Positions 6,942-63,933 of a stretch of DNA of 64,000 bases are shown here, piece by piece (the first letter of the stretch is position 1; each line of letters begins with the position of its first letter). The notes under the pieces were generated by a model that was given only the letters and a program-made list of their open reading frames with translations, was not told where the DNA came from and did no database searches. This stretch comes from Acidobacteriia bacterium AH_259_A11_L15 (GTDB taxonomy: Bacteria; Acidobacteriota; Terriglobia; Acidiferrales; 2-02-FULL-67-57), in assembly GCA_027717655.1 (NCBI GenBank), contig JALLOH010000002.1:3474-67473 (forward strand), read 5' to 3'. A program made the position numbers and the translations under genes.

Positions 6942-8495
6942 TCAGCGGCCGCCGAGCGCGCGCAGGTCGCGCCCTTTCATCTCCTTCGGTTGGGGGAGGC
7001 CGAGCAGGCCGAGGACGGTGGGCGCGATGTCTTGCAGGGCACCGTCCTCGCGCAGGCGCAGGTTCGAGTCGTCAGAGACCAGGAGGAACGGCACCGGATT
7101 GGTGGTGTGGTAGGTGTGGGGGCTGCCGTCGAGATTGCGCATGGTTTCGGCGTTGCCGTGGTCGGCGGTAATCAACCAAGCGCCGCCCTTGTCTTTGAGC
7201 GCGTTGTACATCTGCCCCAGGCAGGCGTCCACCGCCTCGACGGCCGCGCGGGTGGCCTCCAGCTTGCCCGAGTGGCCCACCATGTCGGCGTTGGCGAAAT
7301 TGATGACCATGACGACGAACGCGTCCTTCCGGAGGGCGTTCACCACCGCTTCGGCAATGCCCGCGGCGTTCATCTCCGGCTTCCGGTCATAGGTGGGGAC
7401 TTTGGGCGAGGGGACGAGAATTCTCTCCTCGCCCGGATAGGGCTTCTCCACCCCGCCGTTGAAAAAGTAGGTCACGTGGGCGTACTTCTCGGTCTCGGCC
7501 ACCCGCAGGTTCCGTAGACCTTCGCGGGCAAAGACGTTCGCCAGGATGTTCTCCGGCTGCTGCGCCCCGAAGACGTACGGCACCCAGTCGAAGGTCTTGT
7601 CGTAGCGGGTCAGAGAGACGAAGAACAGCTTCCGGGGGCGCTGCGCGTCCTGGAACTTGTCGAACTTCGGCTCGGTGAGCGCCCGGGTGAGTTGCCGGGC
7701 GCGGTCGGCGCGGAAGTTGAAGAAGATCACCGCGTCGCCCTCCTGGATGCGCGTCCGCGGCTGGCCGTCCCGATCCTTCAGCACCACCGGCTCGACGAAC
7801 TCGTCGGTCACCTCCCGCTGGTAGGATTCCCGCAGGGCCTGGACGGGGTCGGTGTGGGTGTGGTCGGCTTCGCCGTGAACGATGGCCCGGTAGGCCCGCT
7901 CGGTGCGCGGCCAGCGGTTGTCGCGATCCATCGCGTAGTAGCGCCCGCAGATCGAGGCGAGCTGGCCCCCGCCCAGTTGGTCGAGCTTCTTCTGCACCTG
8001 CTCCAGGTAGCTCGCGCCGGATTCGGGCGGGGTGTCGCGGCCATCGGTGAGCGCGTGCACGAAGACGCGGCGGACGCCGTTCTTCTTGGCCATCTCCAGC
8101 AGGGCGAACAGGTGGTTGAGGTGCGAGTGCACCCCGCCGTCGCTCACCAGCCCGATCAGGTGGAGCTGGTTCTGCCGGCTGCGCTCCATCGCCTTCCGCA
8201 GCAGCTCGTTCTGGAAGAGCTCCCCCGACTCGATGGCCAGAGCGATGCGCGTGATGTCCATATAGATGACGCGCCCGCTGCCGATGTTCAGGTGGCCGAC
8301 CTCGCTGTTGCCCATCTGGCCTTCGGGCAGGCCCACGTAGCGCCCGGAGGTGTGCACCAGCGTGTTGGGGAATTTCTTCACCAGCTCGTCGAAGCTGGGC
8401 GTGCGCGCCTGGGCGATGGCGTTGTCCTCCCGCTCGGCGCGAAAACCCCACCCATCCAAGATGGTCAGCACGACGGGTCTGGAGCGGTTGGCCAT
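6942..8495 (-). CDS. gpmI: 2,3-bisphosphoglycerate-independent phosphoglycerate mutase
   Basis: 517 aa, N-terminal [22 protein letters not shown]-terminal ADHGNAE motifs of iPGM. Confidence 0.95.
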
Positions 8496-8604
8496 GGGGT
8501 GCCTAGTGTACTACAAGGGCTTTGTGCGACTTCTCCCAGCACTCCGGGCGGCAGGTGCCGCCCGGCTCGGCGCACAAGAAAAGTTTGCCGCGCCTGCCCC
8601 CAAC

Positions 8605-8635
8605 GCTGAGCCCGGTGGCACCCGCCACCGGGAGC
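8605..8635 (+). repeat. REP hairpin (family E, GGTGGC-ACCC-GCCACC) just downstream of the RAYT gene
   Basis: GCTGAGCCCGGTGGCACCCGCCACCGGGAG. This is the inverted orientation of the three copies at 9179-9331. Confidence 0.75.
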
Positions 8636-8645
8636 GACCAGAGAG

Positions 8646-9341
8646 TCAGTCCAATGGGTTTATTGTGATGCATCCCTGGCCGAGCTCGTAGTTTCGGAGA
8701 CTCGAATACAGATAATTGATTGCCCGTTTCACAAGACGGTCACGAACTGGATTGGCATGAATGTAGTCGAGCTTCTGGTCAAACATCGAGCGCGATGTGA
8801 CAGCGCGGACGTAGCTCCGTGGCTGCAAGACACAGTACAGAGCATCTCGTCTTCGCTCGGGCTGGGTGGGCAAACGCAGGCGGCTAAGGAGACGCGGGTT
8901 GTTCTGTTTCGCCTCGTCAACGACCATGCGGCCGACAGCGCTCTTAAGGTCACGCAGGAAGCCGGCGAAGCTCTTTTCGGGCGGAAAGCCTAAGAGTAAA
9001 TGAAAGTGGTCCGGCATCAGGACATAGGCATAAAGGGAGAATGCGTACTTCGAGCGGTAAAAAGCGAGTTCGCGGAAGAAGATGTCACGGTTGGCAGACT
9101 CACGGAAGAGAGGGACTCTTTTGTAGGTGTTGGCGGTGAGAAAGATAATTCCTGCCCGGACTTTCTTGCCGGGGTAAGTCTTTTTCCCGGTGGCGGGTGC
9201 CACCGGGCTCGGCGCGGGGAGGCGGGAAGCCCTTTTCCCGGTGGCGGGTGCCCCCGGGCTCAGCGCGGGGAGGCGGGAAGTCTTTTTCCCGGTGGCGGGC
9301 GCCACTGGGCTCAGCGCGATGGGTGTCAGGGACTTGGCCAT
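8646..9341 (-). CDS. REP-associated tyrosine transposase (IS200/IS605 TnpA-like, RAYT)
   Basis: Core IIFLTANTYKRVPLF...YAYVLMPDHFHLLL (HUH motif)...DYIHANPVRDRLV...YSS (catalytic Tyr region). The N-terminal about 55 aa are encoded by the REP tandem array. Confidence 0.85.
   Translation of the reverse strand: MAKSLTPIALSPVAPATGKKTSRLPALSPGAPATGKRASRLPAPSPVAPATGKKTYPGKKVRAGIIFLTANTYKRVPLFRESANRDIFFRELAFYRSKYAFSLYAYVLMPDHFHLLLGFPPEKSFAGFLRDLKSAVGRMVVDEAKQNNPRLLSRLRLPTQPERRRDALYCVLQPRSYVRAVTSRSMFDQKLDYIHANPVRDRLVKRAINYLYSSLRNYELGQGCITINPLD
9179..9331 (-). repeat. 3 x 51-bp tandem repeat, each unit carrying a REP hairpin, inside the RAYT 5' coding region
   Basis: Units start at 9179, 9230 and 9281 (TCTTTTTCCCGGTGGCGGGTGCCACCGGGCTCGGCGCGGGGAGGCGGGAAG and variants). 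They are translated as SPVAPATGKKTSRLPAL / SPGAPATGKRASRLPAP / SPVAPATGKKTY. Confidence 0.85.
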
Positions 9342-9347
9342 GGGCGG

Positions 9348-10646
<1,299 letters not shown>

Positions 10647-10925
10647 CTAGGTCCATCGCAGGGTAACGTCATACTTGGCCGCCAGCTCTTGGGCGTCGGC
10701 GGCCAGGCGCTTGAAGTTGATGGAGGCGATGTTCATGTTGGCCAGAGCCACCTTCCAGCCTTTGCCCTCTCCCCTCCAATTCCACTCGTAAAGCTTTAGC
10801 TCCTGGCCGAACTTGCTCTTCAGGGCGCAGAGGGCCACCCAGCGCTTGGGGGTGCGAACGTAGGTGCGGGCCTCGAGGAGCTCGTAGTAGTCGCTCAGGG
10901 GGAGTTTTTCTGAATCGTCGCTCAC
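10647..10925 (-). CDS. hypothetical protein (about 92 aa)
   Basis: GTG start at 10925 preceded by GGAAGGAGAG, high GC3, ends 16 nt upstream of eno. No family recognised. The longer 182-aa ORF-track version has an implausible N-terminus. Confidence 0.5.
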   Translation of the reverse strand: MSDDSEKLPLSDYYELLEARTYVRTPKRWVALCALKSKFGQELKLYEWNWRGEGKGWKVALANMNIASINFKRLAADAQELAAKYDVTLRWT

Positions 10926-11202
10926 AGGGGCTCTCCTTCCGGCAGGAATTCTGGCCGTGGAGTCGGCCGCGAGGAAGAAGCGGGCGACCGGACGCCCATT
11001 ATAGCAAGCGACAGCGCGCGCCCGCGAAAAAATCGCCCCGGCCAGCCTCCCGGGGCCACTCCCGAGGGTGAAAAATTGCCCGTCCGGGGAAAAAAGACTC
11101 GCGGGGGCACAAAGGGGAGCGCCGGAGAAATCCCTTGACTGGCCACAGGCTTTTCGGTAAGTCTTACCAATCCTTGCTTGCTTACAAGAGACCAAAGGGG
11201 GT

Positions 11203-11409
11203 GTGGATCAGTTGGCCGAAGTTCGGATACAAGAGTCTGAATCCTTGGAAAGTGCTCTTCGGCGGTTCAAGCGGAAGGTGCAGCAAGAGGACATCATCAA
11301 GGACATCAAGAAACACTCCTACTACTTGAAGCCCGGGCAGCGACGCAGGATCAAGCAAGCTCTGGCACGCAAGCGAGCACGAAAAAAACAACGGCGTGAG
11401 CGCGGCTAG
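11203..11409 (+). CDS. rpsU: 30S ribosomal protein S21
   Basis: ESLESALRRFKRKVQQEDIIKDIKKHSYYLKPGQRRR... is the canonical S21 pattern. Confidence 0.9.
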   Translation: MDQLAEVRIQESESLESALRRFKRKVQQEDIIKDIKKHSYYLKPGQRRRIKQALARKRARKKQRRERG

Positions 11410-21916: not shown

Positions 21917-22269
21917 CTCTTATCTTCTGGTCTTGCATTTTGATCGAGTCGGTCGACAATCTTCTCAGCGAGCAAGTCAACGCCGACCTTGTTGACCCGG
22001 ACTGTGACCGTGCGCGTTGATGAGCGGAGAACGATCTGGACCGAAGAGAAGGCATTGCTGTCGTGATTAACCGTCGCCGATTCGAATGTGAGCTCCGTCA
22101 GTTCGCCTGTGGACCGGAAGTAGCTCTGATTTTTTCGGGCGCGATCGCTGCAGTGATAGTTGGGTTGCCAGTCGCCGCTGAGGATTTGTGCAGCAGCGGC
22201 GGCCGAGGCACCGAATTTGTCAAGGAACTCTTCCTCTTTGCTGTAAAGCCTCTTGAAGTACTCAGTCAT
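21913..22269 (-). CDS. hypothetical protein (118 aa), islet 1
   Basis: ATGA overlap with the GIY-YIG gene start, coding-like composition. No family recognised. Confidence 0.55.
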   Translation of the reverse strand: MTEYFKRLYSKEEEFLDKFGASAAAAAQILSGDWQPNYHCSDRARKNQSYFRSTGELTELTFESATVNHDSNAFSSVQIVLRSSTRTVTVRVNKVGVDLLAEKIVDRLDQNARPEDKR

Positions 22270-22301
22270 GTGATCGGGTCTCGACGCCGCCTAACTGCTG
22301 T

Positions 22302-22556
22302 TTAGGCTGACCTGGATAAAAGGGCTTCGTGTTGGCCGAAGACGAAACCGCCAACGCCTGGATTTCGGCTCCCCCAGGCAGGTGCCCTTCGACTAGGCTC
22401 CCTTCGGCTGCGCTCCCCTCGGCCATGCTCGGGGTCTTCGACAGGGCAGGCAGGACAAGCCTGGGGGCTCGGCGCATGGAAGTTATCTCGCCGAGCCTGG
22501 TGGCACCTGCCACCAGGCGGCTCAACCGGCAAGTTCTCGTCAAGCAGAATGCGCAC
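22302..22556 (-). pseudogene. truncated DUF5615 (PIN-like) toxin gene; only MRILLDENLPV is retained, then repeat-derived sequence
   Basis: The N-terminal 11 aa match the DUF5615 start (MRxLLDENLP). The sequence then runs into the REP hairpin (22491-22517) and a family-B repeat (22383-22462). Confidence 0.6.
22491..22517 (+). repeat. REP hairpin (family E) inside the decayed toxin gene
   Basis: CCGAGCCTGGTGGCACCTGCCACCAGG. Confidence 0.7.
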
Positions 22557-22761
22557 GGCTGAGAACGGAGTCGCGCGCCATTTCCAGAGCGGCTAAAGCC
22601 TGTTGGCGGTTGACCGAGGGAAACTGGCGGAGAAATTCGTCCAACGTCTCTCCCCCTTCGAGATAGTCGAAGAGTGACTGGACCGGAACGCGGGTGCCGA
22701 CAAAGACGGGTGTGCCCCCCAGAACCTGAGGATCGCTGTGAACAACGCCCTTGGGAATCAT
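22540..22761 (-). CDS. DUF433 domain protein (putative antitoxin)
   Basis: DPQVLGGTPVFVGTRVPVQSLFDYLEGGETLDEFLRQFPSV is the DUF433 signature. It overlaps the start of the DUF5615 remnant by 17 nt, as in intact pairs. Confidence 0.8.
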   Translation of the reverse strand: MIPKGVVHSDPQVLGGTPVFVGTRVPVQSLFDYLEGGETLDEFLRQFPSVNRQQALAALEMARDSVLSRAHSA

Positions 22762-22947
22762 AGCGTCTGCTCCCGCCCTCTCCCAGAACTATACACCCAA
22801 GCCCGGGTGTGTTCCCAAGACTTCTTCCATGACAACGCGGAATCAGAAGGGCCCGCATCGCGGGCCAGACAGGCAGGAATGCCTGTCCTACTAACTAATT
22901 TCCCGCTGGCGGGCGCGTGATAGACCCGGGGGTCGGGTGGCTTGGTC

Positions 22948-37509: not shown

Positions 37510-37573
37510 GAAAATAGAAAATGGAAAACAGAAAACAGGCTCCGCTCCCTCCTCTTTTCCATTTTCTATTTTC
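37510..37573. repeat. perfect 19-bp AT-rich inverted repeat with 26-nt loop between ubiX and the prenyltransferase gene
   Basis: GAAAATAGAAAATGGAAAA (37510-37528) and TTTTCCATTTTCTATTTTC (37555-37573), followed by a T-rich tract. Confidence 0.8.
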
Positions 37574-37603
37574 CCTTTTCGCCCTTTGCTTTTAGCGTTG
37601 CGG

Positions 37604-58691: not shown

Positions 58692-59054
58692 ATGCCACGA
58701 GTCAAACGAGGACCGAAACGCGCCCGCCGCCGGAAGAAGATCCTCCGCCAGGCCCGAGGCTACTACCTGACCCGGTCGAAGCTCCATCGCCAGGCCCGCC
58801 TGGCCGTGCACCGGGCGCTGCAGTTCAGCTTCCGCCACCGGCGCACCCGGAAGCGGGAGTTCCGCCGGCTGTGGATCGTGCGCCTGAACGCCGCCGCCGC
58901 CCGGCACGAGCTGAGCTACAGCCGGTTGATGGACGGCCTGCACAAGGCGGGCATCGAGCTCGACCGCAAAGTCCTGGCCGACATCGCCGTGCGCGACCCC
59001 CAAGGCTTCGCCGCCCTGGCCACCACCGCTAAACAGGCCGCCGCTGCCGCCTGA
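58692..59054 (+). CDS. rplT: 50S ribosomal protein L20
   Basis: MPRVKRGPKRARRRKKILRQARGYY...FRRLWIVRLNAAAR. Confidence 0.95.
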   Translation: MPRVKRGPKRARRRKKILRQARGYYLTRSKLHRQARLAVHRALQFSFRHRRTRKREFRRLWIVRLNAAAARHELSYSRLMDGLHKAGIELDRKVLADIAVRDPQGFAALATTAKQAAAAA

Positions 59055-59469
59055 CGGGCCCCCTCACCTTCGCCGCCGAGGCCGGCTTGCCCTGAGCTCA
59101 TCGAAGGGTGGCACCTGCCACCGGCTTTTCACCTGGATGCGTCAAGGGTCTCTTTTCGCTGCTTGCCCTGTCGTGTAAACTGCGGCACGAACTCCCCGTG
59201 GCAGGTGCCACGGGGCTCAGCGCAGTAGGTGAGTGTTTTGATAGGGCAGGGCTTCAGCCCTGCCGTTCGCGGCTGTTAAAGATTGGGCTTTAGCCCCTGA
59301 GGACACCCGGCTTTTCCGCAACGCGGCTCTCGTGTAAACTGCCTGCCTTGAACGAGAAGCTTGGGTAGGACAAGGCTTTATGCCTTGCCGCTCAACCGGC
59401 AGGGGATGAACCCCTGCCCTACCCAGCCCGATTGTCATCCTGAGCGAAGCGAAGGATCTCAACGCAGCC
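59055..59469. repeat. 415-bp rplT-pheS spacer made almost entirely of dispersed repeats (families E, D, A)
   Basis: REP pair at 59106-59124 and 59194-59223 (inverted), TCGTGTAAACTGC at 59171 and 59330, family D at 59241-59300 and 59364-59424, family A at 59432-59460. Confidence 0.75.
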
Positions 59470-63736: not shown

Positions 63737-63933
63737 GGACTACGCCTGCGACGTTCGTGAGGGTGCTCGGGATAAACTGAGCCAACAGACGAAGAATGGG
63801 AGTTCGGGTCGCGTGCTGGTGAGCATGTCCCGAATCTTCGGGAAAGCCTAAAGGCGCGCGCAGAACACCCACCTGAACGTACGGTTCAGGCTACCAAGTG
63901 CCCCACGGCGCCGGCGGACGTAGTTCTCTTTTT
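63737..63933 (+). ncRNA. ssrS: candidate 6S RNA
   Basis: An ORF-free stretch of about 197 nt directly downstream of zapA, the conserved ssrS position in E. coli. The 5' end GGACUACG pairs with the 3' end CGUAGUUC, followed by a U-run. A long imperfect rod is possible (for example CGUGAGGGUGCUCGG with CCAAGUGCCCCACG). Confidence 0.45.

Follow-up and report, generated by a model that had tools for sequence, protein, structure and literature searches.

Genes and REP Copies at the eno-gpmI Locus

We analyzed a stretch of 64,000 nucleotides (the window, to which all coordinates refer) from Acidobacteriia bacterium AH_259_A11_L15, in which a gene for a repetitive extragenic palindrome (REP)-associated tyrosine transposase (RAYT) lies between the glycolytic genes eno and gpmI. 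All three genes are on the minus strand. RAYTs are domesticated transposases of single-stranded DNA that presumably spread these short hairpins. The RAYT gene is bracketed by REP hairpins in inverted orientation, and three sense REPs, arranged as a tandem array, lie within its own open reading frame (ORF). The features of the locus are:

6942..8495, minus strand: gpmI (2,3-bisphosphoglycerate-independent phosphoglycerate mutase), downstream neighbor; Pfam iPGM_N and Metalloenzyme
8544..8571, minus strand, sense to the RAYT: second 3' REP, GCCGAGCC-GGGCGGC-ACCT-GCCGCCC-GG, with the variant stem GGGCGGC
8605..8632, plus strand, antisense to the RAYT: 3' REP, GCTGAGCCCGGTGGCACCCGCCACCGGG, with a perfect stem; it starts 16 nt past the stop codon
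8646..9341, minus strand: full RAYT ORF, 231 aa; NCBI annotation P0001 (100% identity), NF047646 and Pfam Y1_Tnp
8646..9161, minus strand: catalytic core of the RAYT, residues 61-231; invariant columns of alignment A1, AlphaFold2 and PDB fold match 4er8_A
9179..9331, minus strand: tandem array of about 2.7 units of 51 bp (17 codons), each a REP plus about 23 nt of downstream leader
9186..9213, minus strand: REP copy 3, gene-proximal, GCCGAGCC-CGGTGGC-ACCC-GCCACCG-GG, with a perfect 9-bp stem; it encodes PSPVAPATG
9237..9264, minus strand: REP copy 2, with one stem mismatch (CGGGGGC against GCCACCG)
9288..9315, minus strand: REP copy 1, distal, with one stem mismatch (CAGTGGC against GCCACCG) and the loop GCCC
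9348..10631, minus strand: eno (enolase), upstream neighbor; Pfam Enolase_N (E 5e-60) and Enolase_C (E 6e-131), ORF list

The identical protein P0001 is the entry from Acidobacteriia bacterium AH_259_A11_L15 itself. A first-pass annotation of this DNA, made from the sequence alone, had given the gene order, the common strand and the two intergenic gaps, and checking of the coordinates found them correct: the eno stop codon (9348-9350) is 6 nt from the RAYT ATG (9339-9341), and the RAYT stop codon (8646-8648) is 150 nt from the gpmI ATG (8493-8495). The REPs that it listed are real, but its list omitted the variant at 8544-8571, which forms an inverted doublet with the REP at 8605 between the RAYT and gpmI genes (spacer 33 nt). 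A doublet of this type is also present in L001 and L155, two of the related loci described below. No further RAYT copy was found in the 64-kb window.

Tandem Repeats Finder placed the array at 9182-9318, with a period of 51 bp, 2.7 copies, 91% matches, no indels and a score of 232. Its sense REPs span 9186..9315, in frame in the 5' part of the RAYT ORF, and every unit has GCYGAGCC-CGGTGGC-ACCC-GCCACCG-GG running in the same sense as the gene; the in-frame 51-bp array and the peptides quoted for it in the first-pass annotation agree with the translation and with this result. RNA folding gave -20.5 kcal/mol (z -4.0) for the gene-proximal copy, which is the only array copy with a perfect 9-bp hairpin. 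The other two folded at -17.0 and -14.3 kcal/mol, no better than shuffled sequence; decay of these two distal copies is already under way. Folding the whole 5' region as RNA was not informative, as the three like-oriented units cross-pair, and the REP-encoded leader of 64 residues, searched by itself against proteins, had no match at E <= 10.

A terminator and promoter scan of positions 8300-11400 found no intrinsic-terminator-like site at the REPs and no sigma-70-like promoter. The idea that the REPs act as terminators parting eno, RAYT and gpmI was dropped, as none of them in the scanned region was terminator-like.

The Gene Product Is an Intact RAYT

The protein matched the NCBIfam model for REP-associated tyrosine transposases (NF047646, REP_Tyr_transpos) at 93.2 bits against a cut-off of 80, and Pfam Y1_Tnp at 30.4 bits against a threshold of 23. 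The IS200 model NF033573 scored 24.9 bits, under its cut-off of 55. The HUH motif PDHFHLL (H112 and H114) and the tyrosine Y193, in YIHANP, were invariant across 27 homologues (alignment A1), with an HUH-to-Tyr spacing of 81 aa in the window protein, and a conserved basic arm, GKKVRAG, lies at the N-terminal edge of the core. An AlphaFold2 model built on the 27 homologues had pLDDT values mostly of 92-98 over residues 61-230 (75-84 at about 151-170) and of 40-53 over residues 1-60. Its top structural match in the PDB was 4er8_A, TnpAREP bound to REP (E 1e-8); the top PDB match by sequence was also E. coli TnpAREP (4ER8).

RAYT-specific residues have been defined as a conserved Thr near the N-terminus and the motif NP[LV][RK]xG after the Tyr (Nunvar 2010; PMC2817692). 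The window protein has the Thr (in FLTANT) and NPVR, with R in place of the final Gly (NPVRDR), at a position that varies among G, H, R and N within the clade. The protein is a genuine RAYT (TnpAREP) of the class 2 Y1 HUH type and is intact, and the first-pass call of an HUH/Y1 RAYT is upheld by the NF047646 score and by 4ER8 as best match.

The Position Between eno and gpmI Is Shared by Related Loci

A database search returned 26 close homologues with 45-78% identity, and DNA was compared at 15 related loci, making 16 with the window. The order eno-RAYT-gpmI was found in 14 of the 15 (L001, L003, L005, L007, L008, L010, L101, L112, L120 and L154-L158; the exception was L009), and the shared order extends as eno-RAYT-gpmI(-2-hydroxyacid dehydrogenase). 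The syntenic RAYTs were 43-78% identical to that of the window, with core identity down to 43-48%, alongside enolase identities of about 70-88%. Because 14/15 loci keep the order despite this divergence of the RAYT, its position between eno and gpmI is, as judged from synteny, old and vertically inherited. A metagenome scan with alignment A1 found distant RAYTs only (26-40% identity), none of the syntenic clade, and was left unused.

Two clades of RAYT occur at the eno locus. Clade A has REPs with the stem CGGYGGC, and clade B has the stems CCGAGGC, CCGCGGC or CCCAGGC. Both paralogues are present in L010, where a clade-B gene lies between rpsU and eno and a clade-A gene between eno and gpmI; the REPs of this clade-B paralogue (1602-2150) have the canonical GTAG foot (CGTAGCC), and its 5' REP is untranslated. 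In L003 (4001-4633) and L007 (476-1138) a clade-B gene occupies the eno-gpmI slot behind two in-frame REPs, the first of A type and the second of B type, which are 51 nt apart in L007. The enolases of these two loci are about 84% identical to that of the window, the same as in clade-A genomes, which suggests that the site stayed the same while one RAYT lineage may have replaced another.

The 5' REP Is Conserved as a Hairpin

Every one of the 16 loci carries a sense REP, positioned 193-210 nt 5' of the HUH codons. In the window it is the gene-proximal array copy (copy 3, at -196 nt), which is thus the ortholog of the conserved 5' REP. An antisense REP lies 4-16 nt past the intact stop codon in 15 loci, and 67 nt past a premature stop codon in L008. 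All 15 related loci therefore have flanking REP copies. RAYTs flanked by inverted REPs are the textbook arrangement of a REPtron (PMC2817692), and the first-pass annotation had recognized it correctly at the window locus. In L008 (4001-4590; protein P0020) the C-terminal homology and the 3' REP continue 67 nt beyond the premature stop, so that the gene is either a pseudogene or affected by a sequencing error. Extra REPs 5' of the conserved one occur in L120 (reverse complement, 2131-2153) and L101 (2075-2179), out of frame and 155 or 224 nt off; accretion of REPs 5' of the RAYT thus seems to be recurrent, and in frame only sometimes.

Across 31 flanking REPs the nine stem pairs were paired in 99.6% of cells, compared with 33-56% in slid controls, a figure that is partly built in as the REP finder permitted one stem mismatch at most. 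Two results are not built in by the finder: the fixed positions of the REPs and the compensatory changes, which occurred at 4/9 stem pairs (18 cells) and gave a covariation score reached by 0/500 shuffles. At the protein level, the variants SPVAPATG, SPAAPAAG and SPEAPASG (V..T, A..A and E..S) correspond exactly to the stem pairs T:A, C:G and A:T. Within the foot, G-A-G-C was invariant and the preceding base was C, T or A, giving the consensus YGAG; the canonical GT[AG]G foot directly 5' of the palindrome was not found in this REP family.

Nucleotide entropy within the REP was 0.11-0.17 at each of the three codon positions. Coding periodicity was apparent immediately afterwards, with values for codon positions 1/2/3 of 0.60/0.46/1.00 over the 12 post-REP codons and 0.62/0.34/1.23 in the core; the leader before the REP had an entropy of 1.4-1.5 at every codon position and is unconstrained. 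The sequence PSPVAPATGKK stands directly before the core in nearly all aligned homologues, with two copies in some. The REP-encoded motif is N-terminal in about 23 homologues, and two or three in-frame copies were found in proteins P0023-P0026 and, among loci with DNA, in L003, L007 and the window. Taken with the covariation, this pattern indicates that what is conserved in the 5' REP is the hairpin, not the peptide, and that the apparent conservation of PSPVAPATG is a by-product of a constraint on DNA or RNA.

The Start of Translation

The first-pass annotation had named the ATG at 9341 as the only ATG before the core, and the ORF bears this out; the other in-frame starts are GTG codons 13 and 47, which lie in REP copies 1 and 3. 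Between the last REP and the core of the window gene there is no ATG, GTG or TTG. Since the basic arm that follows the REP is coding, initiation in the window lies within or before the last REP. The internal GTG of that REP is in the 5' arm of the -20.5 kcal/mol hairpin. In L001 and L155 the REP GTG is replaced by GCG with no later start, so that there the start must be upstream of the REP and the whole REP translated. The L157 REP is out of frame, with an ATG 11 nt beyond it; L008 has an ATG 3 nt after the REP, and in the L010 paralogue a stop codon separates the REP from the ATG. The REP peptide is dispensable, because it is absent or out of frame in these three genes.

The distance from the RAYT start to the eno stop codon is 6 nt in the window, -4 in L154, 22 in L155, 13 in L003, 19 in L005 and -4 in L007 (the upstream sequence of L112 is the same as that of L005). 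On these spacings, the window RAYT probably starts at the ATG at 9341, by termination-reinitiation coupled to eno.

The REP Family Beyond the RAYT Gene

Further copies of the hairpin lie elsewhere in the window:

22490..22517, plus strand: dispersed REP, GCCGAGCC-TGGTGGC-ACCT-GCCACCA-GG, preceded by a degenerate half REP at 22461-22477
59107..59122, plus strand: dispersed hairpin downstream of rplT, without the conserved foot; partner of the copy at 59194
59194..59221, minus strand: dispersed REP downstream of rplT, GCTGAGCC-CCGTGGC-ACCT-GCCACGG-GG

The hairpin pattern GGTGGCNNNNGCCACC, with at most one mismatch, matched eight times in the window against 0.58 expected, and 0/100 shuffles reached eight. 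Three to four REP copies are distant from the RAYT gene. The further hairpins that the first-pass annotation had placed at 22491, 59106 and 59194 are present (pattern hits at 22493, 59107 and 59196); its claim that they are all the same hairpin holds at 59107 for the hairpin itself, but not for the conserved 5' foot, which is absent there. The hairpins at 59107 and 59194 are inverted, about 70 nt apart, in the spacer 3' of rplT (58692..59054). The half REP before the REP at 22490 is of clade-B type, and both lie inside a 198-aa ORF (22262..22858, minus strand) for which Pfam gave no match; this ORF may be spurious, or the REP may be intragenic.

The strict pattern GAGCCNGGTGGCACCYGCCACCNGG was then searched across 185,579 species, one genome each. 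It gave 63 matches, where about one would be expected by chance in the whole collection at 65% GC (our own arithmetic). Sixty of them were in eight Acidobacteriota metagenome-assembled genomes (MAGs), labeled Acidobacteria, Terriglobia or Candidatus Acidiferrales, and three of these MAGs hold 20, 17 and 10 REP loci. The remaining three comprised one match in a short contig of an Acidiferrobacterales-labeled bin and two in high-GC Actinomycetota. The hairpin is thus strongly enriched both in the window and in related genomes. Neither of the outcomes that the first-pass annotation had named as refuting it, a hairpin without enrichment and orthologues without flanking copies, was observed. Around the matches there were 26 close pairs of neighboring REPs, 19 of them in '+-' orientation, of which 15 were separated by 6-22 nt; by their layout these inverted doublets are REPIN-like. 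The two doublets of the window (8544/8605 and 59107/59194) have longer spacers, of 33 and about 70 nt.

Comparison With Known RAYT Systems

Among the closest described systems are the group 3 RAYTs, or subclass 2.5 (the Stenotrophomonas maltophilia REPtron Sm, the Marinomonas REPtron Mb and Pseudomonas fluorescens), which share with the window short perfect-stem REPs, a 3-4-nt loop and a 4-nt foot. The foot adjoins the stem in Sm, as in the window, and is 2 nt off in Mb. Their motifs DH[LF]H and YI.ANP match DHFH and YIHANP (PMC6006769, Table 1), and they too have REPs as inverted doublets and a single syntenic gene. The window system differs in its foot (YGAG, not GTAG), its phylum (Acidobacteriota), its 5' REP within the ORF, and an HUH-to-Tyr spacing of 81 aa against about 60, the extra residues being inserted between helix C and strand 4, much as in subclasses 2.2 and 2.6. 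The motifs of the window RAYT therefore fit subclass 2.5 and its spacing fits 2.6, in a comparison made with published descriptions.

Escherichia coli TnpAREP (YafM, group 2; 4ER8) is also a REP-bracketed gene with HUH/Y1 chemistry on single-stranded REP hairpins. The E. coli REPs differ in being long and imperfect with a bulge, in their strict GTAG foot, in their arrangement in bacterial interspersed mosaic elements (BIMEs) and in lying outside the ORF. In IS200 tnpA, too, the message of a Y1 transposase carries a stable 5' hairpin; IS200 differs in being multi-copy and autonomous and in that its hairpin sequesters the ribosome-binding site, whereas the window hairpin is mostly within the ORF and its regulatory role is putative.

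Repeats that run into RAYT-like coding sequence have been published in two forms. In subclass 2.4 (Bertels group 4) a REP lies in frame inside tnpAREP, leaving the frame undisrupted, in a presumed flexible region (PMC6006769). There it stands between HUH and Tyr, the motifs are NH[IFV]H and YIxNNP, and the hosts are mainly Cyanobacteria and Bacteroidetes; in the window system the REP is N-terminal, at a position fixed across the clade, and is the flanking 5' REP itself. In subclass 2.8 the N-terminal domain is Pro-rich and sometimes carries an inserted REP (Quentin et al., 2018; PMC6006769). Di Nocera et al. (2013; PMC3733652) described RAYT-like genes that form a sharply delimited group in Acidobacteria, including '5'ov' cases of overlap. 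These TIRYT/TIRtron genes (T. saanensis, K. versatilis, A. capsulatum and G. mallensis) resemble the window gene in being RAYT-like with inverted-repeat flanks, some of which overlap the 5' or 3' end of the ORF (PMC3733652). Compared by description only, TIRtron flanks are long terminal inverted repeats unrelated to GTAG REPs, and those of the window are short REPs with foot and hairpin. The first-pass annotation had called a REP array serving as coding sequence unusual; with in-frame REPs (PMC6006769) and repeats overlapping ORF ends (PMC3733652) already published, that claim was overstated.

What appears to be undescribed is a YGAG-foot REP family in a Terriglobia lineage, a 5' REP fixed in frame across a clade, and the in-frame triplication of the REP unit in this genome. 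The triplicated REP is a curiosity and not a new kind of system, and it implies no new mechanism. To our knowledge, nearly all work on REP/RAYT (REPIN-RAYT) systems has been done in Proteobacteria.

Interpretation and Alternatives

We consider it likely, with a probability of roughly 0.8, that the locus is the REPtron of a Terriglobia lineage close to Candidatus Acidiferrales, fixed between eno and gpmI, vertically inherited, and with a 5' REP under selection as a hairpin. The RAYT would be an HUH/Y1 endonuclease of single-stranded DNA, with a cognate REP made up of a YGAG foot, a 9-bp GC stem and a 4-nt loop (NCCN). By analogy with studied enzymes it may bind the folded REP on single-stranded DNA and cleave nearby, with the AG of the foot as guide. 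In the TnpAREP proteins tested, of groups 2 and 3, the 5' tetranucleotide guides cleavage, and in group 3 the last two positions of the foot (AG) carry most weight (PMC8266576); judged by its sequence, the YGAG foot does retain AG. Co-evolution of the gene with its REP family is probably maintained through the flanking REPs. Their hairpins, in a transcript reading through from eno, likely also limit RAYT expression; for REPtrons, Di Nocera et al. have proposed that such down-regulation could occur, by analogy with IS200.

The 5' REP would be read in frame in most lineages by virtue of its place at the 5' edge of the functional coding region, and its translation would add the Pro/Ala-rich PSPVAPATG to a disordered, dispensable N-terminal leader. 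With translation from 9341 the whole array of the window would form such a leader, disordered and rich in Pro, Ala and Lys. Two rounds of tandem duplication of the REP with about 23 nt of leader are the simplest account of the triplication, and the leader, being disordered, may have tolerated the duplication, as a unit divisible by three leaves the frame intact.

Several points weigh against this reading. The source genome is not among the 185,579 searched, and its REP counts cover the 64-kb window only; the comparison loci are all MAGs or metagenome contigs. Recognition and cleavage are extrapolated, the foot being YGAG and not GT[AG]G, and the stem pairing owes something to the REP finder, as noted above. 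On the side of translation, all RAYT start codons are predictions, no Shine-Dalgarno sequence is recognizable before the ATG at 9341, and all three frames are open across the GC-rich array, so that an open frame alone says little.

One alternative is that the array is untranslated, with the true start at GTG codon 47 and the distal units forming a BIME-like intergenic REP cluster that is open by chance. RAYTs of this group work with an untranslated 5' REP, as L157, L008 and the L010 paralogue show; ahead of the REP, the leader is free in sequence and length, and the stems of copies 1 and 2 are decaying. By chance alone, one period in three would be divisible by three, and all frames are frequently open in GC-rich DNA. 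However, the GTG lies in an arm of the -20.5 kcal/mol hairpin with no Shine-Dalgarno sequence upstream, and the GCG at this codon in L001 and L155 makes an upstream start obligatory there. The called starts near or overlapping the eno stop codon (the window, L154, L155, L003, L005 and L007) fit translational coupling, and indels at the junction of REP and arm are of +1 and +2 codons in P0011 and P0012. We regard an untranslated array as unlikely on balance. Alternatively, the repeated peptide SPVAPATGKK... might itself be selected, for example as a basic, flexible DNA-binding arm whose copy number tunes activity; the motif is present in about 23 homologues and multi-copy in P0023-P0026, L003, L007 and the window, with the 51-nt spacing recurring in L007. 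Against selection on the peptide, the three codon positions are equally invariant, the amino-acid changes are exactly stem-compensatory, three genes (L157, L008 and the L010 paralogue) lack the motif or have it out of frame, the region is predicted to be disordered, and the distal copies gain non-conservative changes such as V to G; this makes the idea very improbable.

Two further accounts are scarcely credible. The first-pass annotation described the RAYT as inserted, splitting a glycolytic gene pair, and the Y1_Tnp domain and the inverted terminal hairpins speak for a recent IS200/IS605-like insertion. As a recent event this is contradicted by synteny, the position being common to 14/15 related loci and kept across RAYTs of 43-78% identity, and an autonomous IS200/IS605 element does not agree with a fixed locus, the motif YIHANP in place of Y...Q, an IS200 model score below cut-off and a single copy in the 64-kb window. 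The three-unit array might instead be an artefact of assembly from a single REP, since the source is, to judge by the name on entry P0001, a draft assembly of an uncultured organism, but its units differ at about 9% of positions without indels, in a contig of about 82 kb, and repeats collapsed or expanded by an assembler are normally identical. A more elaborate proposal, which we put forward only as a doubtful one, has two parts: the 5' REP could regulate in cis, as a target that the RAYT binds or cleaves or as an mRNA roadblock, and its copy number of one to three at 51 nt would tune RAYT output from a glycolytic operon; separately, eno-gpmI could be a fixed 'cradle' in which one RAYT lineage with a REP class of its own succeeds another, the older REP staying behind in the leader of the new gene, as L003 and L007 suggest.

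The locus provides a clean example from the Acidobacteriota, with a non-canonical foot that nevertheless keeps the AG by which tested group 3 enzymes choose where to cleave. Its occurrence in one housekeeping cluster across deep divergence speaks for RAYTs being domesticated genes passed on by vertical descent. Across lineages the hairpin appears to be untranslated, or translated once, twice or three times, which amounts to a natural experiment. The locus also suggests caution in annotating conserved N-terminal motifs, as PSPVAPATG stems from selection on nucleic-acid structure.

Other Features of the Window

Pfam gave no match for the ORF upstream of eno, and Rfam gave no family for the RAYT region, its sole match in the window being a 6S RNA. 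This 6S/SsrS RNA lies at 63740-63924 on the plus strand (RF00013, 84.8 bits against a gathering score of 46.4). At 37510-37580, in a window that is otherwise GC-rich, 3.7 copies of the heptamer GAAAATA are followed after 20 nt by 3.7 copies of TTTTCCA, forming an inverted pair of tandem arrays.

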